A stretch of DNA of 64,000 nucleotides, taken from contig JACKAV010000009.1 in NCBI GenBank assembly GCA_020634895.1, forward strand, positions 65,465-129,464, written 5' to 3'. Under the pieces are notes generated by a model. That model made no database searches, was not told the origin of the DNA, and saw nothing but the letters and a program-made list of their open reading frames with translations. This DNA is from Anaerolineales bacterium. Lineage in GTDB: Bacteria; Chloroflexota; Anaerolineae; Anaerolineales; Villigracilaceae. The position numbers were made by a program, and so were the translations under genes. Below, one piece after another: positions 10,417-18,489 of the stretch. Positions within the stretch are counted from its first letter, which is position 1. Every line of letters starts with the position of its first letter.

Positions 10417-11838
10417 CTATTGCGAGAGAGAGCAACGAAAACCAAGATAATTTTCTTTGTCGTTTGGGTTAACCCCAAATCGAAAATACGAACGGGCGGC
10501 ATAGATACCAGAACTCCACGAGCCTCCCCGTTTCACTTTGTTTTGTCCATTTTCAGGGCCTGAGGGATTTTCAGAAGGTGAGTTCAAATAGTAAAGATCA
10601 TCATACCAGTCTCTTACCCATTCAGATACATTTCCTCCCAAATCGTACACTCCATACAGGCTCTTATCACCTAGATATTTGCCAACCGCTGTAGTATCTC
10701 CAATACAAGAATTATCATAATTCGCCTTATTGCAGTTAATATTTTCTCCCCAAGGATAGGTTCGATCATCCTGTCCACGCGCAGCTTTTTCCCATTGTGC
10801 CTCAGTAGGCAGGGCACGTCCCACCCATGAACAATAAGTCATTGCATCGTACCAAGAAACATATACAACCGGATAATTCGCAAACCCGGGGTCATCGAAA
10901 TAAGAAGAACGGGATTGTGAACGATTTTTTTCTGGTGGCTCGCACTGTTTCGCCTCCACACATTTGCCATACATTGCATTAGTGACCTCAGTCTGGTCAA
11001 TCCAATAAGCATCTAAAAAAACTTTATGAGCGACCTGGCTCCAATCTAAACTTCCCATCATAAATTCCCCTGCAGGGACATAAAGCAGCAGCATGTCATC
11101 CTTCAATGACCTTGAGGATGAGCCAATTCCAAGTACCGTTGTCGGTGTCGGGCTGGGAGACGCGGTTTCGGTCAGTGTTGGAGTGAACGGCGCTAACGTC
11201 TCTGTAGGCGGTTTGGGCGTTTCTGTAAAACTCTGTATGGTAGGTGTGGGTGTCGTTTCGGGCAGTTTCCTGAAGAGGGAATTCAAGCCAAATCCGCCTA
11301 AGATGAAAAACAGCAAAACGATTCCCACAACCCCAAAACTGCGAAACCGTTTTACTTGATAGATATTCCCAGACTTGATAAGTCTTTTTACCTCTTCGGT
11401 TTTTACTTTTTCTTCTGGAACCTGCGGCTTCTCTTCTTTTTCAGCTAATCCCCGATCTTTATTTTGCGAGACAACACTTTCAAGGTGACGGAAAAATCTT
11501 TCATCAGGCAGACCACCGCCAATAACATCAGAGTAATTTTTATCCTGCAGCAGCATCCATAGATCACCCTGCAGTAAAAGCGGAAATATCCTTTTGTCCT
11601 TCTGCATGGCATAAAGGACTTCACGTCTCACCCACTTCGAAAATTCCGAACTTTTAGTCATCACAACGATAAAAGCATCGCAGGCGTCTATTCGATTCGT
11701 GATGTGTTCAACCCACTCATCACCAGTCAACATTTCCAGGTCATACCAAACGTTAAATCCCCTTGTTTCAAGGGCATCAACCAGTCTCTTTACATAATCC
11801 TTATCTGTTCGGCTGTAACTAATGAAAATATGACCCAT
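10417..11838 (-). CDS. TIR domain, TM helix, Pro/Thr linker and FGE-sulfatase (SUMF1/C-type lectin fold) domain
   Basis: HIFISYSRTD...SKWVRREV TIR; TM FGVVGIVLLFFILGGFGL; LPTEAQWEKAARG, DLGGNVSEW, RGGSW...LGFR. Confidence 0.88.
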   Translation of the reverse strand: MGHIFISYSRTDKDYVKRLVDALETRGFNVWYDLEMLTGDEWVEHITNRIDACDAFIVVMTKSSEFSKWVRREVLYAMQKDKRIFPLLLQGDLWMLLQDKNYSDVIGGGLPDERFFRHLESVVSQNKDRGLAEKEEKPQVPEEKVKTEEVKRLIKSGNIYQVKRFRSFGVVGIVLLFFILGGFGLNSLFRKLPETTPTPTIQSFTETPKPPTETLAPFTPTLTETASPSPTPTTVLGIGSSSRSLKDDMLLLYVPAGEFMMGSLDWSQVAHKVFLDAYWIDQTEVTNAMYGKCVEAKQCEPPEKNRSQSRSSYFDDPGFANYPVVYVSWYDAMTYCSWVGRALPTEAQWEKAARGQDDRTYPWGENINCNKANYDNSCIGDTTAVGKYLGDKSLYGVYDLGGNVSEWVRDWYDDLYYLNSPSENPSGPENGQNKVKRGGSWSSGIYAARSYFRFGVNPNDKENYLGFRCSLSQ

Positions 11839-11971
11839 AAGTTTTTTAACCAATTACGATGCCTTGCAAGGTGCGGCAAGAAAAACACGGAGAAGCCCTG
11901 GCATGGTTCAGTTAAACCTAGTTTAAAAATTATAAACCCTCCCACCGAGAAAACTCAGCGAGAGGGCTCCA

Positions 11972-11991
11972 AACCTTCAACCTTCAACCCT
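11972..11991. repeat. 7-nt tandem repeat, three units
   Basis: aaccttc aaccttc aaccct directly after the moeB stop. Confidence 0.5.
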
Positions 11992-13145
11992 TAATACAAC
12001 GGCAAACTCGTATCCACTTCCTCTGCCCAGGCGTTGATTCCGCCTTTGAGGTTCTTCATCTTCTTGAAACCGGCGGACGAGAGAATTTCGATGGCGCGCG
12101 CCGAGCGTGATCCGCGTTTGCAGAAGACGACCATCTCTGTAGCAGAATCAAGCTCAGACATACGCTGGGCAACTTCACCGAGCGGGATGTTCTTTGCGCC
12201 ATCAATGGCAGCGATCTCCAACTCGTGAGGCTCACGCACATCGAGCAGGAGCAGGTCCGGGTCACGTTCGAGGCGGGCTTTTAATTCCTGCGCTGTGATG
12301 TCCCAATCCGCGCCCGCAGACGTATCATCCGCATGATGACCGGGCACACCACAAAACTCCTCGTAGTCGATCAACTCGGTGATATCGGCATTCGGTCCGC
12401 ACACACGGCAGTTGGGATTCTTCTTGAGCTTGACGAAATCAAAACTCATATCGAGCGCGTTGTATAGCAGGAGTTTTCCAATCAGCGGCTCGCCGATTCC
12501 AAGCAGGACTTTGAGCGCCTCGGTGGCTTGAAGTGTGCCGATCGTTCCGGGCAGGATGCCCAGCACGCCTCCCTCCGCGCACGAAGGGACAAGCCCGGGC
12601 GGCGGCGGTTCGGGGAAAAGACAGCGATAGCACGGACCTTCCTCGGCGTGAAAGACGCTCACTTGCCCATCGAAGCGGAAGATGGAGCCGTAGATATTCG
12701 GTTTGCCGAGCATCACGCAGACATCGTTGGTGAGATAACGGGTCGGAAAGTTATCGGTGCCGTCGATAATGACATCGTAATCCTTCGCGATGCGCAAGGC
12801 GTTCTCTGATGTATACGGCTCGTTATAAATATCCACCTGAATGTCCGGATTCAAATCCTGCAAGCGTTCGCGGGCACTTTCAACTTTCAACTTTCCAACT
12901 GTGCTCGTTCCGTGAATGACCTGACGCTGAAGGTTGGACGAATCTACAACGTCGTAATCCACCAAGCCAATGCGACCGATGCCAGCCGCGGCGAGGTAAA
13001 GCGCAACGGGAGAGCCAAGTCCGCCTGTGCCGATGACGAGAACAGAAGAGTTCTTGAGTTTGATCTGTCCCTGCAAGCCGACTTCGGGCATGAGCAGGTG
13101 ACGCGAGTAACGCAATATTTGTTCGTGATTAAGTTCTTCGATCAT
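11991..13145 (-). CDS. moeB: MoeB/MoeZ-type E1-like adenylyltransferase with C-terminal rhodanese domain
   Basis: RYSRH, GTGGLGS, SNLQRQ, CYRC and CRVC zinc motifs, PSCAEGG, rhodanese FCKRGSRS. Confidence 0.93.
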   Translation of the reverse strand: MIEELNHEQILRYSRHLLMPEVGLQGQIKLKNSSVLVIGTGGLGSPVALYLAAAGIGRIGLVDYDVVDSSNLQRQVIHGTSTVGKLKVESARERLQDLNPDIQVDIYNEPYTSENALRIAKDYDVIIDGTDNFPTRYLTNDVCVMLGKPNIYGSIFRFDGQVSVFHAEEGPCYRCLFPEPPPPGLVPSCAEGGVLGILPGTIGTLQATEALKVLLGIGEPLIGKLLLYNALDMSFDFVKLKKNPNCRVCGPNADITELIDYEEFCGVPGHHADDTSAGADWDITAQELKARLERDPDLLLLDVREPHELEIAAIDGAKNIPLGEVAQRMSELDSATEMVVFCKRGSRSARAIEILSSAGFKKMKNLKGGINAWAEEVDTSLPLY

Positions 13146-13453
13146 TTTGCCCTCACCCTAACCCTCTCCCAAAGGGAGAGGGAACCACCCGCAATGGACG
13201 GAATGAGCATCAACTTATCGCCGTCCTTGATGGGCGTTTCCACGCCTTGCAGGTCTTTGATATTATGCTCGCCGACGAACAAATTCACGAACGGACGCAG
13301 TTCATCCTTCTCGTTGAACAGATGCGGCTTGATGGCTGGGAACTGAGTCGTCAAATCCGCCAATGCCTCGGAAATATTCGCGCCGTTCACGTCCACTTCA
13401 CTTTTGCCGCTTGTATAGGTACGCAGCGGGGTTGGGATTCTCAAAGTTGTCAT
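13142..13453 (-). CDS. MoaD/ThiS/CysO-family ubiquitin-like sulfur carrier with a 13-aa extension after the Gly-Gly
   Basis: LRIPTPLR..., LRPFVNLFV, LIPSIAGG then SLSLWERVRVRAK-stop; ATGA overlap with moeB. Confidence 0.88.
   Translation of the reverse strand: MTTLRIPTPLRTYTSGKSEVDVNGANISEALADLTTQFPAIKPHLFNEKDELRPFVNLFVGEHNIKDLQGVETPIKDGDKLMLIPSIAGGSLSLWERVRVRAK
13150..13182. repeat. CCCTCACCCTAACCCTCTCCC-AAA-GGGAGAGGG palindromic element inside the Ubl 3' end
   Basis: ccctctccc (13162-13170) / gggagaggg (13174-13182), preceded by ccctca/ccctaa units. Confidence 0.75.
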
Positions 13454-13490
13454 AAATTCTGTTTTCTCTCTCGTTTAGTTTTTTTCTTCT

Positions 13491-13536
13491 GTAGGTCACG
13501 CTTTTAGCGTGACGCCACGTTACAAACACGACCTAC
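13491..13536. repeat. Inverted doublet of 23-nt GTAG REP-like elements (REPIN-like)
   Basis: gtag-gtcacgc-tttta-gcgtgac (13491-13513) abutting gccacgt-tacaa-acacgac-ctac (13514-13536). Confidence 0.7.
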
Positions 13537-13541
13537 ATATT

Positions 13542-14066
13542 TCATACAAACAATTGTACATCGGCATCTGCGGCGTATTCAAGGAAGGTCGCCGCGCCGC
13601 CAATCTCCGACTCTGGGATGAAGTCTTCGCGTTTGAAGCCAAAGACATCCATCGTCATCTGGCAGCCGATCATGCGGACGTCAAGTTCCACGCACATATC
13701 GCGTAATTCCTCAACCGTGGCAACGCCTTTATTCTTGAAGGTCTGTTTCATCAAACCGGTTGCCAGCGTCTCAAAACCAGGGACATTCGCCATCAAAATA
13801 TTCGGCATGGGCCAGTTAATGTTCTGGAATCCCTCGGGACCAAAGGGCATTTTCATCGGCATGGCAGGGTTGCCAAGCGCCGAGACTTGAGCGGAAAGCT
13901 TCGGTTTGAGCAGGGTCAGCCCAAAGAAGGTGAAAAAGATACCCACTTCCCAGCCCATTGCAGCGCCCGCACTGGCAAGGATGAACGGCGGATACGCCCA
14001 ATCAAGCGTCCCTTTGCTGGCGATCAACGCCAGTCTCTTCGGGGCATTCGGGTCAGATTTTGACAT
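13542..14066 (-). CDS. DsrE/DsrF/DrsH-like (DsrE2) sulfur-relay protein
   Basis: LALIASKGTLDWAYPPFILA, FFTFFGL, IGCQMTMDVFG, GGAATFL. Confidence 0.85.
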   Translation of the reverse strand: MSKSDPNAPKRLALIASKGTLDWAYPPFILASAGAAMGWEVGIFFTFFGLTLLKPKLSAQVSALGNPAMPMKMPFGPEGFQNINWPMPNILMANVPGFETLATGLMKQTFKNKGVATVEELRDMCVELDVRMIGCQMTMDVFGFKREDFIPESEIGGAATFLEYAADADVQLFV

Positions 14067-14098
14067 ATAAACCTCTTATTAAAATCAAAAGACAAAAT

Positions 14099-14335
14099 CT
14101 ACTTTTTGCGCAGGAAGAAAATGAACTTGCCTTCTTCCGTCAGGGAGCGCAGCAATTCGTTGCCGGTTTGCCTGCTCCACGCTTCGATGTCTGGAGGCGA
14201 ACCCGGGTCGGTTGCGATCATTTTCAGCACCTGCCCCGATTCCAATTCCTTGATCGCCTTGGTCGTTTTGACGATCGGCATTGGGCAAAGCAAACCTGTG
14301 CAATCCAAAACCTGGTCTTCGGTGATTACGTCCAT
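14099..14335 (-). CDS. tusA: Sulfurtransferase TusA/SirA family, 78 aa
   Basis: LDCTGLLCPMPIV (CPxP) and ATDPGS motifs; SD aggag before ATG 14335. Confidence 0.9.
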   Translation of the reverse strand: MDVITEDQVLDCTGLLCPMPIVKTTKAIKELESGQVLKMIATDPGSPPDIEAWSRQTGNELLRSLTEEGKFIFFLRKK

Positions 14336-14369
14336 ATTAAAGTTTCTCCTTTTGGAATTCTTGAGATCG

Positions 14370-14392
14370 ATCCTGAAGTGGAACTTCAGGAT
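14370..14392. repeat. Intergenic palindrome (GAAGT/ACTTC family)
   Basis: atcctgaagt-gga-acttcaggat. Confidence 0.55.
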
Positions 14393-14397
14393 TCCGT

Positions 14398-14811
14398 CTA
14401 TTGAATTTGAATTTCTTCTTCTTCGTATTGGGTGCGGTCTTCCACCAAACGCCACGAACGGTGGTTGACCGTTTTCCCTTTGTCCACACGCGAAATGATG
14501 TACGAGAAAAACGGCTGCGCCCATTCGCGGTCATATTCAGAAGGCACATTTGGGCAATCAGGGTGAGAATGAAAAACACCGATCAAGTCCATGCCCAACT
14601 CCATCGCTTTCATTTCCGCTTTCAGGTAATCTTCCGGCGTGATCAAAAAACGATTATGACGCGCTTCATCCTCGCGGGCATTCGGCAGCGAGATGATCTC
14701 ACGCACTTCCCCGTCCGCGCCGAGCAAAAAGCCTGCGCCCTCATCGGGATAAGCCGCTTCGATATGTTGTTGAATTCCTTCCAAAATCTTGTTTGTTACT
14801 TTCAAACTCAT
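14398..14811 (-). CDS. mec: JAB/MPN (M67) metallopeptidase, Mec/CysO-cysteine peptidase-like
   Basis: YPDEGAG glutamate and FHSHPD...PSEYD JAMM motif. Confidence 0.88.
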   Translation of the reverse strand: MSLKVTNKILEGIQQHIEAAYPDEGAGFLLGADGEVREIISLPNAREDEARHNRFLITPEDYLKAEMKAMELGMDLIGVFHSHPDCPNVPSEYDREWAQPFFSYIISRVDKGKTVNHRSWRLVEDRTQYEEEEIQIQ

Positions 14812-14814
14812 TTT

Positions 14815-15765
14815 TTATGCTCGCTCCCAAAGAGATTTGTCACTCAAATATTTATAGCCCGCATCCGGGAAGACGGTCACAACCACGCCTTCGTCAAGTT
14901 CACTTGCGACTTGAAGCGCAGCCACTGCCGCCGCCGCGGATGAGATTCCCACAAACAGACCTTCCTCCCGCGCAAGCCGGATCAACATCTCATGCGCCGC
15001 CTCGGTCTTGACCTCAAGCGGATTCCCCGCCAGAGACTCATCATAAATCCCGGGCTTGATGGAAGTCGGCATATGTTTCAATCCCTCCAATCCGTGGAAG
15101 GGAGCGTCCGGCTGAAACGCCAGCGTTTTGACATGCGGCAGATGCTCATGCAGATAGCGGCTTGTACCCGTAAATGTTCCGGATGTGCCCAATCCCGCCA
15201 CGAAGTGTGTGATCTGCCCATTGGTCTGGGAAATGATCTCAGGCGCAGTGCTCAGATAATGTGCCTGCCAGTTCGCGTCGTTGTTGTATTGATTGGCATA
15301 CCAGAATTTGTCCGGAGATTCCGCCGCCATCTCACGCGCCTTGAGGATTGCGCCATCTGAGCCTTCGGTCGGGTCGGTCAACACCAACTCCGCGCCAAGC
15401 GCCTTGAGGATGGAGATCCGCTCGGGGCTGGCGTTGGCAGGGAGCGCCAATGTGACGGGAATTCCCAACGCCGCGCCAAACGTCGCATATGAAATGCCCA
15501 TATTGCCGGACGTTGAATCCAATAGACGTTTGTGGTTATTCAAGTCACCATTGATGATGGCGGTCTGGATGATGTTCAACGCGGGTCGGTCTTTGACCGA
15601 GCCGCCGGGGTTAAACCATTCGGCTTTGGCAAAAACCTTCACTCGCGGTGACAGGCCCAAGGTCACGCGGCGAAGCGGAAGCAGGGGCGTATCCCCCACA
15701 TGAAAAGCAAGGCTGTCCAAAGGGATGGTATTTGATTCGGTTAATCGAAAGTCCAGTAAGGTCAT
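14815..15765 (-). CDS. cysM: PLP-dependent cysteine synthase, CysM-like
   Basis: VGDTPL, NPGGSVKDR (PLP lysine), TSGNMG, GLGTSGT, FPDAGYKYLS; SD aagga before ATG 15765. Confidence 0.9.
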   Translation of the reverse strand: MTLLDFRLTESNTIPLDSLAFHVGDTPLLPLRRVTLGLSPRVKVFAKAEWFNPGGSVKDRPALNIIQTAIINGDLNNHKRLLDSTSGNMGISYATFGAALGIPVTLALPANASPERISILKALGAELVLTDPTEGSDGAILKAREMAAESPDKFWYANQYNNDANWQAHYLSTAPEIISQTNGQITHFVAGLGTSGTFTGTSRYLHEHLPHVKTLAFQPDAPFHGLEGLKHMPTSIKPGIYDESLAGNPLEVKTEAAHEMLIRLAREEGLFVGISSAAAAVAALQVASELDEGVVVTVFPDAGYKYLSDKSLWERA

Positions 15766-15831
15766 ATATTCCTTGTTCAGTTTTGCAAAGGGCAAAACAT
15801 TATCAATTAAATAGAAACAGCCAACAGACAA

Positions 15832-15856
15832 ACAAAAAGACGGCGAACAAACGCCA
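15832..15856 (-). terminator. Candidate attenuator terminator in the cysM leader
   Basis: UGGCG-UUUGUU-CGCCG followed by UCUUUUUGUUU; short stem. Confidence 0.4.
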
Positions 15857-15941
15857 CACATCATGCATACTAAGGGATGCACGCGGGGGTCGCTCTACCG
15901 TCTGAGTCCGTTGGCTGCGGAAGTATTCGCTCAGGCGGTGG

Positions 15942-15986
15942 CTACGAGCCCCGCCCAAGACACAAGCAATAGGAAAATATCTTCAT
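15942..15986 (-). CDS. Candidate leader peptide MKIFSYCLCLGRGS (two Cys codons)
   Basis: ATG about 16 nt after the predicted transcription start; the stop sits inside a GC-rich hairpin; SD is weak. Confidence 0.4.
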   Translation of the reverse strand: MKIFSYCLCLGRGS

Positions 15987-16008
15987 GATTTAATCTCTAG
16001 ATGCGCCT

Positions 16009-16036
16009 ATTCTATGAATCTTACCGATTTTGTCAA
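16009..16036 (-). promoter_or_regulatory. sigma70-type promoter for the cysM operon
   Basis: TTGACA (16036-16031), 16 nt, TAGAAT (16014-16009). Confidence 0.65.
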
Positions 16037-16065
16037 GATAAATATCCCCACCAATATTTGTTGTT

Positions 16066-16347
16066 TTATCCGCCCGAAGCAGAAGCCATTAAGATGACCA
16101 CATCCCCATCATTCAATGTTGTCTCAAATCCGTTCAGTTCCTGCATTTGAACGCCGTTCACAAAGATGCTGAAATACCGCCGCAGTTCACCTTTCGCGTC
16201 AAAGAGGTGCGGCTTTAGCGCGGGATAACGCAAAAGGATGTTATCAAGCAGTTCGGTGATCGTTGCGCCGTTCACTGAGAACTCGCTTTGGTTATCAACA
16301 TAATATTTCATCAGGGCGGGAAACTTAACGGTTGGCATGGAAAGCAT
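16066..16347 (-). CDS. Second MoaD/ThiS-family ubiquitin-like protein ending in a free Gly-Gly (start may be 16338)
   Basis: VKFPALM..., LRRYFSIFVNG, ILMASASGG-stop. Confidence 0.85.
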   Translation of the reverse strand: MLSMPTVKFPALMKYYVDNQSEFSVNGATITELLDNILLRYPALKPHLFDAKGELRRYFSIFVNGVQMQELNGFETTLNDGDVVILMASASGG

Positions 16348-16357
16348 TTTAATGCAA

Positions 16358-16384
16358 AAGTCCCGAAGTTAAACTTCGGGACTT
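16358..16384. repeat. 13-bp palindrome (CCGAAGT/ACTTCGG family), possible fusA terminator
   Basis: aagtcccgaagtt-a-aacttcgggactt. Confidence 0.7.
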
Positions 16385-16407
16385 GAGACGTTAGTCCAAT
16401 GCTGAAA

Positions 16408-18489
16408 CTATTCTTCCTTCTTGGCTTCCATTTCCTTCTTATGCGCTTCGATGATCGGAGCCGCAATATGTGAAGGAACCGTATCGTAGTGATCGAACTC
16501 CATCGTGAAGTAACCGCGTCCACCTGTGATGGAACGAATCTGGGTGGTGTACTTCAGCATTTCAGCCATCGGCACGTGCGCGATGATGATGGTGTTTCCG
16601 CGTTCCGACTCGGTTCCCTGTACGCGCCCGCGGCGGGTGTTGAGGTCGCTCATCACGTCGCCCATATTCGCATCCGGGCAGGTCACGCGGACGTTCATGA
16701 TCGGCTCGAACAACACGGGTCCCGCCTCAGCCACGGCGAGCTTGAAGGCTTCGCGACCTGCGATTTCGAACGCGACTGGTTTCGAGTCTACTTCGTGTTC
16801 CTTACCGTCGTAGACAGTCACACGCACATTGCTCATCGGATAACCGGCGAACGCGCCTCTTTCCATCGTGGCGCGGATGCTCTTTTCGATCGGAGGCAGG
16901 TACGAACGGGAGAGATTCATACCGACCAACGCATCCACGAATTCGAAGTCGCCTTCCATGTACGGCTCGATGCGAAGATGAACTTCACCGAACTGACCAG
17001 CGCCGCCGGATTGTTTCTTGTGGCGATACTGCGCGGCAGCTTTTCTTGTAATGCCTTCGCGATACGGGACCTTCGGTTCGTGAAGTTCAATGCCAACCTG
17101 GAATTTGGTCTGCGCGCGATGGACTGCCACGTCGATATGCTGGTCGCCCATTCCCTGCAGGACGGTTTCATGCGTCACGGAGTCGTTCTGCCAGGAGAGA
17201 GTCATATCTTCTTCTGCCAGGCGGGTGAGGACGCTGGAAATCTTTGCAGCATCTGCCTGAGTCTTGGGAGTGACAGCTACACGGTACAACGCCGCTGGGT
17301 ATGCAGGCGTCGGAATGGTCAGGGGATGTCCCTTATCGCAGAAGGTGTCGCCAGTGGTGGAGACGTTCAGTTTCGCGACCACGGCAATGTCTCCAGCATG
17401 AACCAATTTTGTAGGAATGGATTCCTTACCACGCTGGAAATGCATACCGGACATACGCTCATCCGTTTCTTTGGGCTGGTTCCAAACATGAGAATCCGCT
17501 TCAATGGAGCCGGAGAGCACGCGGAAGTAGGTCATTTTTCCCACGAACGGATCAGCTGTTGTTTTCCATACATAAGCAGCGAGGGGAGCATCATCGGAAG
17601 GTTTCAATTCTTCTTCACCGTCTTTGCCCTGTGCTGTACGCTTTACAGCATCGACCGGAGAAGGAAGCAGGTCGATGACATCGTTGAGCAAGGCAATTGA
17701 TCCAATTTCATGCGCGCCTGCCGCACAAAAGACCGGGACAAATTCTCCAGCGTAGACCACATCTTCGAGACCACGCACCATCTCTTCGTCTGAGAGAGAG
17801 CCGTTCTCAAGATATTTTTCCATCAATTCATCTTCGCCTTCGGCGGCGGCTTCCACCATATCAAAATGGGCTTTTTCAGCAGCTTCCTTTAATTCAGCAG
17901 GGATTTCCGCCGTAGTCGAGCCGTCACCCATATAGGACTTCATCCCAATGATATCCACCACGCCTTTGAAATCGTGCTTATCGCCAATGGGCAGGTGGAC
18001 CTTGATGGCGCGTTTATCATGCAGTTTGACGAACTCGTCGATCTGGGCAAACGCCTTTTCAAAGTCTGCAGTATCGCGGTCCAATTTATTAATGACAATG
18101 AAACGCGGCAGGTTGAACTGGTCGCAATAGCGCCATGCCAGTTCGGTCCCCACTTCGATGCCGGAAACGGCGTCCACTAAAATAATTGCGCCATCTGCCA
18201 CACTGAGAGCGGATACCATCTCGCCCACGAAATCTGTGTAGCCTGGCGCATCTAGAAAATTGATCTTGTGATCTTTATGCTCAACCGGGATCAAACTCGT
18301 ATAAATGGAGATCTTTCTTCTTTGTTCTTCATCATCATAGTCTGATGTGGTCGTCCCGTCCTCAACTTTTCCCAGGCGGGTTGTTGCCCCCGTTACATGC
18401 AGAAAGGCTTCTGCAAGCATGGTTTTGCCTGCCCCCCCATGCGAAACCAACGCAACGTTGCGTATAAACTCGGTGGTATACTCTTTCAT
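16408..18489 (-). CDS. fusA: Elongation factor G paralogue (EF-G2 type)
   Basis: SHGGAGKT, DAPGYTDF, NKLD, KQSGGAGQF; divergent switch I (EEQRRKISI); not in the str operon. Confidence 0.88.
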   Translation of the reverse strand: MKEYTTEFIRNVALVSHGGAGKTMLAEAFLHVTGATTRLGKVEDGTTTSDYDDEEQRRKISIYTSLIPVEHKDHKINFLDAPGYTDFVGEMVSALSVADGAIILVDAVSGIEVGTELAWRYCDQFNLPRFIVINKLDRDTADFEKAFAQIDEFVKLHDKRAIKVHLPIGDKHDFKGVVDIIGMKSYMGDGSTTAEIPAELKEAAEKAHFDMVEAAAEGEDELMEKYLENGSLSDEEMVRGLEDVVYAGEFVPVFCAAGAHEIGSIALLNDVIDLLPSPVDAVKRTAQGKDGEEELKPSDDAPLAAYVWKTTADPFVGKMTYFRVLSGSIEADSHVWNQPKETDERMSGMHFQRGKESIPTKLVHAGDIAVVAKLNVSTTGDTFCDKGHPLTIPTPAYPAALYRVAVTPKTQADAAKISSVLTRLAEEDMTLSWQNDSVTHETVLQGMGDQHIDVAVHRAQTKFQVGIELHEPKVPYREGITRKAAAQYRHKKQSGGAGQFGEVHLRIEPYMEGDFEFVDALVGMNLSRSYLPPIEKSIRATMERGAFAGYPMSNVRVTVYDGKEHEVDSKPVAFEIAGREAFKLAVAEAGPVLFEPIMNVRVTCPDANMGDVMSDLNTRRGRVQGTESERGNTIIIAHVPMAEMLKYTTQIRSITGGRGYFTMEFDHYDTVPSHIAAPIIEAHKKEMEAKKEE

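Follow-up and report, generated by a model that had tools for sequence, protein, structure and literature searches.

How is sulfur brought to the carrier protein of a thiocarboxylate-dependent cysteine pathway? The physiological sulfur donor of the MoeZR/CysO route is unknown, and mycobacterial MoeZR is known to have a dual role (PMC3227635). The question is raised anew by an operon in the window, i.e., the 64,000-nt stretch of contig JACKAV010000009.1 that we analysed, which belongs to a 97% complete assembly of an Anaerolineales bacterium (wastewater-type Chloroflexota). On its minus strand, positions 11991-15765 hold six co-oriented genes in the order cysM-mec(JAMM)-tusA-dsrE2-Ubl-moeZ(E1+rhodanese), as identified from the open reading frame list together with Pfam and NCBIfam matches; Ubl denotes a ubiquitin-like carrier protein. 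A preliminary description of this DNA had listed the cluster, and all genes were confirmed in their order and orientation. Since the six-gene order recurs in relatives, it is no chance juxtaposition. We somewhat favour the reading that this is a CysO-type thiocarboxylate cysteine operon with a TusA-DsrE2 persulfide pair recruited from the organism's dissimilatory sHdr gene set. The most likely role of TusA and DsrE2 is to feed sulfane sulfur to the CysO-type pathway.

Origin of the TusA-DsrE2 pair

Both proteins of the pair are clear members of their families. TusA (14099-14335, minus strand as all features below; 78 aa) matches PF01206 with E 7e-23 and 80.7 bits (cut-off 28.6). Its Cys17-Pro-x-Pro motif (C17, P18, P20) is invariant among the 62 sequences of alignment A2, and Cys12 is nearly so. 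DsrE2 (13542-14066, 174 aa) matches the Pfam family DrsE_2 (PF13686, E 7.4e-48) with 162.9 bits, well over the cut-off, while its NCBIfam NF047629 score of 209.3 is 0.7 bit short of the required 210. Its sole invariant cysteine is Cys135 (GCQMT), and its solved relatives are 2qs7 and 3pnx. The pair does not form an rhd-tusA-dsrE2 triad with a stand-alone rhodanese; rhodanese occurs in its neighbourhood only as the last domain of MoeZ.

The same genome encodes a second tusA-dsrE2 pair on contig C21, where it heads an sHdr cluster (tusA-dsrE2-STAS-dsrE-hdrC-hdrB-hdrA-hyp-hdrCB). The two pairs are 83% (TusA) and 91% (DsrE2) identical, and the DNA of the embedded pair (13546-14332) is 80% identical to that of the second over 789 nt, spacer included. 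The embedded pair is thus, because of its paralogy to the sHdr-cluster pair, a true sulfur-oxidiser TusA/DsrE2, a reading in line with the preliminary description that DNA identity and tree both bear out. The two pairs show a synonymous divergence (dS) of 1.5-1.9 and a ratio of nonsynonymous to synonymous divergence (dN/dS) of 0.03-0.06, so that the duplication must be old and purifying selection acts on each copy. A recent gene conversion between the two pairs of this genome is ruled out by the same dS values.

To place the pair, conclusions are based on a careful maximum-likelihood tree of concatenated TusA and DsrE2 (38 rows, among them nine pairs linked to cysteine genes) and not on an earlier 105-row DsrE2 tree, which was a quick tree only. 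The nine cysteine-linked pairs occupy four well-supported places. One is found among other Marinimicrobia pairs and one within the sHdr pairs of family f4, while six Anaerolineales pairs, including those of the congeners G071 and G119, form one clade. The window's own pair, and with it its DsrE2, has as its sister group the sHdr-linked pairs from the window genome and G030 (support 96/86). A single clade of all cysteine-linked pairs is rejected by the approximately unbiased (AU) test (p 7e-34). Independent of the tree, the pair of G076 differs in its insertion point and that of the locus L065 in its phylum.

The pair also occurs in genomes for which no sHdr system was found. The sHdr subunit HdrB1 was not found in G119 (99% complete), G151 and G153 (both without a stated completeness), all of which carry cysteine-linked pairs, and likewise gave no match in G152, the genome of the three-gene locus L045 described below. 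The earlier proposal of a functional coupling between the pair and the cysteine operon is thus strengthened by four separately placed recruitments, two insertion points, two phyla, purifying selection, and persistence where no sHdr was found. From repeated recruitment, selection and this persistence we argue that the pair works for its host operon.

Two further observations concern the sulfur-oxidation genes of contig C21. In the sHdr-like cluster (L005:2501-9640, equivalent to C21:183500-190640 of the window genome), a STAS protein (L005:8284-8667) lies between dsrE2 and the next dsrE. This insert is also present in some relatives (L007, L008 and L015) and missing from others. A third carrier set (L006:5512-9449, C21:203500-207450 of the window genome) reads PocR/helix-turn-helix regulator-tusA-dsrE-dsrE2-dsrE-GcvH-like lipoate-binding protein. 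It is located directly 5' of the small subunit of a NiFe-hydrogenase with a twin-arginine (Tat) signal.

The cysteine operon, its variable slot and its carrier

The remaining genes carry the parts that a CysO/CysM/Mec/MoeZ logic demands, as had been proposed at the outset; catalytic motifs are complete in all six families. The cysM-like gene (14815-15765, 316 aa from ATG) encodes a cysteine synthase of the PALP family (PF00291, E 1.9e-66) dependent on pyridoxal phosphate (PLP). It scores 323.9 bits for the NCBIfam equivalog TIGR01138 cysM, i.e., under the cut-off of 394.2. The catalytic lysine of fold-type II PLP synthases is present, since the Lys in NPGGSVKDR aligns to that of E. coli CysM. 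Its best solved relatives are CysM of E. coli/Salmonella (E 1e-56) and of M. tuberculosis (E 1e-50).

The lysine noted earlier in the GLKHM loop of CysM is real. It is Lys230, whose counterpart in the alignment to E. coli CysM is Arg210; by coordinates alone, it would lie within about one residue of Arg220 of M. tuberculosis CysM. Because Lys230 (in HGLEGLKHMP) is invariant across the aligned operon-type CysMs (63-100% identity), it is a clade feature and not a local change. Lysine is also found in L065 and L045.

The mec gene follows cysM after 3 nt (14398-14811, 137 aa) and encodes a Prok-JAB/JAMM metalloprotease (PF14464, E 2.3e-20, 73 bits). It carries the JAMM/MPN+ motif HSHPDCPNVPSEYD (HxHx7Sx2D), which is also aligned in its closest solved relative 2kcq (E 6e-24). 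At the other end of the operon, moeZ (11991-13145, 384 aa) encodes a ThiF-type E1 adenylyltransferase with a C-terminal rhodanese (PF00899 283 bits, PF00581 66.5 bits). Two CxxC zinc motifs, Cys189 and the rhodanese Cys342 in CKRGSRS are all present, and Cys342 is invariant in 25 sequences. MoeZ is the single ThiF-family E1 found in the genome. MoaD-MoaE genes are found at C24:31998-32618 and a ThiS-like gene (a TtuB-like Ubl) beside a PAPS_reduct-family gene at C4:40540-41377. As the sole E1, MoeZ would therefore also have to serve MoaD and the ThiS-like protein of C4.

No CysE above the cut-off was found in the window genome (best 42 bits vs. 210) or in its whole genus, which fits a CysM that would use O-phosphoserine. 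The NIR_SIR sulfite/nitrite reductase family has no match in the window genome. Among 151 sampled Anaerolineales genomes, the respective family PF01077 is found in 10 and CysE over its cut-off in 34, such that most of the order seems to be without assimilatory sulfate reduction. With no sulfite reductase in the genome and few in the order, the cells seem dependent on reduced sulfur.

The same 151 genomes were used to study the synteny of the operon. Of these, 132 gave a MoeZ homologue and 71 a DsrE2 homologue. The two are neighbours in just 4/151, namely in the window genome, in G071 and G119 (two of its four congeners) and in G076, which belongs to another family. The core cysM-mec-...-Ubl-moeZ is present in 18/20 fetched MoeZ loci and is thus the usual arrangement among Anaerolineales. 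The expected conservation thus holds for the core, which is widespread, while the co-conservation of tusA and dsrE2 with cysM is not broad.

What varies is the slot between mec and Ubl. It holds tusA-dsrE2 in the window genome (G000), G071 and G119, and tusA alone in the closest relative G030 (MoeZ 96% identical). In six genomes the slot is filled by a DUF3303 protein of about 96 aa with conserved cysteines, in five by a DUF4395 membrane protein plus a CxxC thioredoxin with a transmembrane (TM) anchor, and in two by nothing. The DUF4395 protein has a CxGC motif, and in G013 the respective pair is located between Ubl and moeZ. In G076, the TusA-DsrE2 pair occupies a different insertion point (cysM-tusA-dsrE2-mec). 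We found nothing in the literature on DUF4395 or DUF3303 in a cysteine-operon context.

A GTDB-wide DsrE2 scan covered 80 loci. A cysteine context is seen in 5/80 (four Anaerolineales and L065 from Neomarinimicrobiota), and about 20/80 are sHdr-linked. Within the Marinimicrobia order of L065, the embedded form is found in 1/61 genomes. As side observations on the slot and its pair, the DUF3303 proteins (L091:6355-6660, L100:8077-8367 and four more relatives) show the motifs …ETCPAK… and …STCE… and a C-terminal GC. In another Neomarinimicrobiota locus (L045:1650-3410), a compact trio consists of a cysteine-synthase-like gene, dsrE2 and tusA, without Ubl, E1 or JAMM gene.

The carrier itself shows a second peculiarity. 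The Ubl gene (13142-13453) encodes a ThiS/MoaD-fold protein (PF02597, E 1.7e-9, 38.5 bits), whose residues 1-90 (13184..13453) end in ...PSIAGG and which is located directly 5' of moeZ in 18/20 related loci. The Gly-Gly is conserved, yet it is followed by a 13-codon tail (SLSLWERVRVRAK, 13145..13183), the stop of which overlaps the moeZ start. A free Gly-Gly would therefore need processing. The tail is encoded by a REP-like element (core 13149-13185). Across the genome, this element has about 35 copies that read CCCTCACCCTAACCCTCTCCC-AAA-GGGAGAGGG..., mostly followed by a second GGGAAGGG hairpin; the Ubl gene ends in one such half-copy (13145-13185).

In relatives, the Ubl ends after Gly-Gly with nothing, with 2-5 residues, or with 10-45 repeat-derived residues. 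Two loci carry in-frame fusions: to MoeZ in L065:7532-8953 (Neomarinimicrobiota, 473 aa) and to the DUF4395 membrane protein in L106:8635-9384 (G013, 249 aa). Judged by their sequences, both fusions would need a cleavage after Gly-Gly. Since the tails are unconstrained while the JAMM gene beside them is conserved, a trimming and hence maturation of the Ubl by Mec is implied. Such a maturation by a JAMM partner has parallels in HcyS/HcyD and QbsE/QbsD. For HcyS/HcyD, work of the Begley lab is said to have described carriers with residues past Gly-Gly that are removed by the JAMM protein. The variable tails and fusions would thus be natural evidence for carrier maturation by a JAMM partner.

A second ThiS/MoaD Ubl gene (16066-16347, 93 aa) is found 5' of the cysM promoter, 60 nt 3' of an EF-G paralogue (16408-18489). 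Its product matches PF02597 and TIGR01687 (50.1 bits vs. a cut-off of 49.5), has a clean Gly-Gly end and is 41% identical to the operon Ubl. The gene is kept 5' of cysM across the family, with products that always end in GG and once in GGS. A role as MoaD is ruled out, as MoaD sits directly 5' of MoaE on contig C24.

The six genes are tightly spaced, with gaps of 3, 62, 32 and 88 nt and a 4-nt ATGA overlap of Ubl and moeZ, and they are framed by one promoter-like and one terminator-like site. The former is a sigma-70-like promoter (TTGACA-16-TAGAAT, 16009..16036) that fits 11/12 consensus positions, is the best site of the region and lies about 240 nt 5' of cysM. The intervening leader (15766..16008) includes a terminator-like hairpin (15840-15857) with a T-run. 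A further terminator-like hairpin of 16 pairs (11934..11969) follows 22 nt 3' of the moeZ stop. Within 11500-16700, no riboswitch or leader family of Rfam was matched; the sole Rfam signal there is a sub-threshold whalefall-1 hit on the REP element (21.4 vs. 37 bits).

RNA data were taken from four wastewater metatranscriptome runs of one study, which gave short contigs at low depth. They cover parts of moeZ, Ubl, tusA, cysM and the leader, with DNA carry-over being possible. RNA contigs end at 15968-15977, just 3' of the promoter-like site, which is weak support for this promoter since contigs cannot show a start. One contig of run X2 matches 13173-13485 and then departs from the window sequence for a further 43 letters, which points to a co-occurring strain in which another gene, i.e., another slot content, precedes Ubl.

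Downstream of the operon, positions 10417-11853 (minus strand) encode a protein of 478 aa. It has a TIR domain at its N-terminus (PF13676, E 9e-25) and an FGE-sulfatase-type domain at its C-terminus (PF03781, E 4e-53), with a hydrophobic stretch rich in Pro and Thr between them. Several relatives have a CysK-like gene after moeZ in its place.

A proposed sulfur relay and its alternatives

Given these parts, the relay could work as follows. Mec would cut the repeat-encoded 13-residue tail off the Ubl and thereby expose Gly-Gly, and MoeZ, as the only E1 of the genome, would adenylate the C-terminus of the carrier. Persulfide sulfur held on Cys135 of DsrE2 and Cys17 of TusA would move on to the rhodanese Cys342, or straight to the Ubl-adenylate, to yield the thiocarboxylate Ubl-COSH. 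CysM would join Ubl-COSH to the aminoacrylate derived from O-phosphoserine, and Mec would free cysteine from the resulting Ubl-Cys adduct. That is, zero-valent sulfur (persulfide, polysulfide, thiosulfate-derived) could be turned into cysteine without free sulfide or a cysteine-spending desulfurase, in a cell without sulfite reductase. Within this scheme, the central adaptor is probably TusA, with DsrE2 acting ahead of it as a partner that is optional.

Single steps have precedents. In E. coli, TusA persulfide makes MoaD-COSH, and TusA serves both molybdenum cofactor synthesis and tRNA thiolation (PMC5372717). For Hyphomicrobium, an efficient transfer from TusA to a rhodanese is reported (PMC11094781). 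A complex prediction for TusA and the MoeZ rhodanese domain (residues 270-384; alignments A1, A2) scored 0.00 against a mark of 0.32 and is used neither for nor against the contact.

Several points weigh against such a cysteine-directed sulfur relay. Every transfer step is drawn from family knowledge, and what DsrE2 does is not settled even for sulfur oxidisers (PMC11094781). Few genomes have the embedded pair (4/151; 1/61), so the pathway works without it, and the closest relative G030 has kept tusA while dsrE2 is gone. Since other relatives carry unrelated proteins in the slot, its job could be redox rather than sulfur donation. With MoeZ as the sole E1 and MoaD as well as a TtuB-like Ubl encoded elsewhere, cysteine synthesis need not be the only use of the relay. 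The number of independent origins could be inflated by gene conversion between paralogues. Finally, none of the RNA contigs bridges two genes by at least 31 nt on both sides, such that co-transcription is neither shown nor refuted.

How far do these points favour other explanations? TusA and DsrE2 might load MoeZ for all its clients, i.e., MoaD for molybdopterin, the TtuB-like Ubl for tRNA thiolation and both local Ubls, and be encoded here simply because moeZ is. The single ThiF-family E1, the MoaD-MoaE and ThiS-like genes elsewhere, the double service of E. coli TusA (PMC5372717) and the dual role of MoeZR (PMC3227635) all speak for such a general supply. We nevertheless consider it unlikely as the full account, as the pair of G076 lies between cysM and mec, away from moeZ, and the L045 trio joins a cysteine-synthase-like gene to dsrE2-tusA with no E1 at all. 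It also overlaps with the cysteine-directed relay and does not exclude it. The same two loci could be taken to show that the Ubl is bypassed, such that a persulfide or thiosulfonate on TusA/DsrE2 attacks the CysM aminoacrylate directly, with protein-S-S-cysteine or S-sulfocysteine as intermediate: L045 lacks Ubl, E1 and JAMM, and in G076 the pair is directly 3' of cysM. Archaeal DsrE3A and TusA carry thiosulfonate (PMC4175335). The CysM of the window, moreover, matches that of E. coli, an isozyme that uses thiosulfate, slightly better than that of M. tuberculosis. Against a direct donation, every other operon that holds the pair has also kept Ubl, Mec and MoeZ, and a protein persulfide is bulky for the closed active site of CysM. 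To our knowledge, no cysteine synthase takes a protein persulfide, and we rate this option as slightly more doubtful still.

The slot proteins could instead share a thiol-redox task without any sulfur delivery, e.g., resolving a Ubl-acyl-persulfide on the rhodanese cysteine or keeping catalytic cysteines reduced. The respective contents in relatives (TM-anchored CxxC thioredoxin, CxGC DUF4395, Cys-conserved DUF3303) and the second, nearly invariant Cys12 of TusA fit this idea. TusA and DsrE2 are established persulfide carriers and not reductases, and by sequence the pair is an orthologue of the relay used in sulfur oxidation, which makes a mere redox helper quite improbable. Least probable is a sulfur-oxidation cassette that landed here by chance and has no tie to cysteine synthesis. 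It would suit the rarity of the arrangement and a genome with a full sHdr/LbpA set that uses such proteins, while the recruitment of such pairs to this type of operon at four separate places of the tree, strong purifying selection and retention of the pair where no sHdr was found all contradict it.

The relay from TusA/DsrE2 to the Ubl and on to cysteine hence remains our preferred explanation of the locus. A broader generalisation is possible, though we put it forward only tentatively: the position between mec and Ubl of CysO-type operons might be an exchangeable 'sulfur-donor slot' for lineage-specific, Cys-based modules (TusA/DsrE2, DUF3303, or DUF4395 plus thioredoxin), of which the TusA/DsrE2 version would bring zero-valent sulfur directly to cysteine, with no need of free sulfide, sulfite reductase or a desulfurase. 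If so, dissimilatory and assimilatory sulfur metabolism would be linked via shared carriers.

Comparison with known systems

Parts of this arrangement are already known. The class 'ThiS/MoaD + E1-rhodanese + JAB + cysteine synthase' was listed for Chloroflexus (Iyer, Burroughs and Aravind 2006, PMC1779556, Table 1 row 4c). The same survey describes Wolinella-type operons, in which ThiS/MoaD and JAB are joined by an E1 that lacks rhodanese, a constant SirA (=TusA), sulfite reductase and O-acetylhomoserine sulfhydrylase (Table 1 row 4e). The core operon (2006) and a SirA/TusA in a related class with rhodanese-free E1 are thus no novelty. What is new is that the embedded pair descends from the sHdr relay and was recruited repeatedly, that the slot is exchangeable and that a repeat encodes the tail of the carrier. 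We came across no paper on CysO that also deals with TusA or DsrE2.

The gene order names TusA and DsrE2 as candidate donors for the CysO/MoeZ route, which is testable with six small soluble proteins. It would also mean that carriers of energy-yielding sulfur oxidation are reused for biosynthesis, in an order mostly without sulfite reductase, and it bears on how abundant wastewater and sediment Chloroflexota acquire their sulfur.

The closest counterpart is the CysO-CysM-Mec-MoeZ(R) route of M. tuberculosis, with which the operon shares the same four families, their motifs and the fusion of E1 and rhodanese. The lack of CysE in the window genome fits the use of O-phosphoserine as in that route, and the E1 probably serves MoaD too, as MoeZR does (PMC3227635). 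In contrast to M. tuberculosis, the window has the E1 in the same operon, a Ubl tail to be removed, an embedded TusA-DsrE2 pair, a second Ubl upstream, and in CysM a lysine at the position of E. coli Arg210.

The pair itself resembles the rhd-tusA-dsrE2/sHdr relays of Allochromatium, Hyphomicrobium and Aquifex (PMC11094781), with which it shares a rhodanese module as third neighbour, and it is a close paralogue of the sHdr-linked pair in the window genome. Here, however, the rhodanese is a domain of the E1, and the likely acceptor is a biosynthetic Ubl instead of DsrC, LbpA or sHdr. Unlike in sulfur oxidisers, the cysteine-linked pair also occurs where no sHdr was found.

With the E. coli IscS-TusA-MoaD/MoeB system (PMC5372717), the proposed relay would have in common TusA as persulfide donor, a thiocarboxylate on a ThiS/MoaD-type carrier and a MoeB-type E1. 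The E. coli system differs in that its E1 is without rhodanese, DsrE2 is absent and the sulfur comes from cysteine via IscS; a supply of the IscS type would be circular for cysteine synthesis, because its sulfur originates from cysteine. The Wolinella-type operons, finally, likewise hold a TusA-family protein within a Ubl/JAMM/E1 operon for sulfur assimilation into amino acids. The operon of the window does not belong to that class: its E1 keeps the rhodanese, its client is a cysteine synthase and not MetY, a true DsrE2 is present, and its genome is without any sulfite reductase match.

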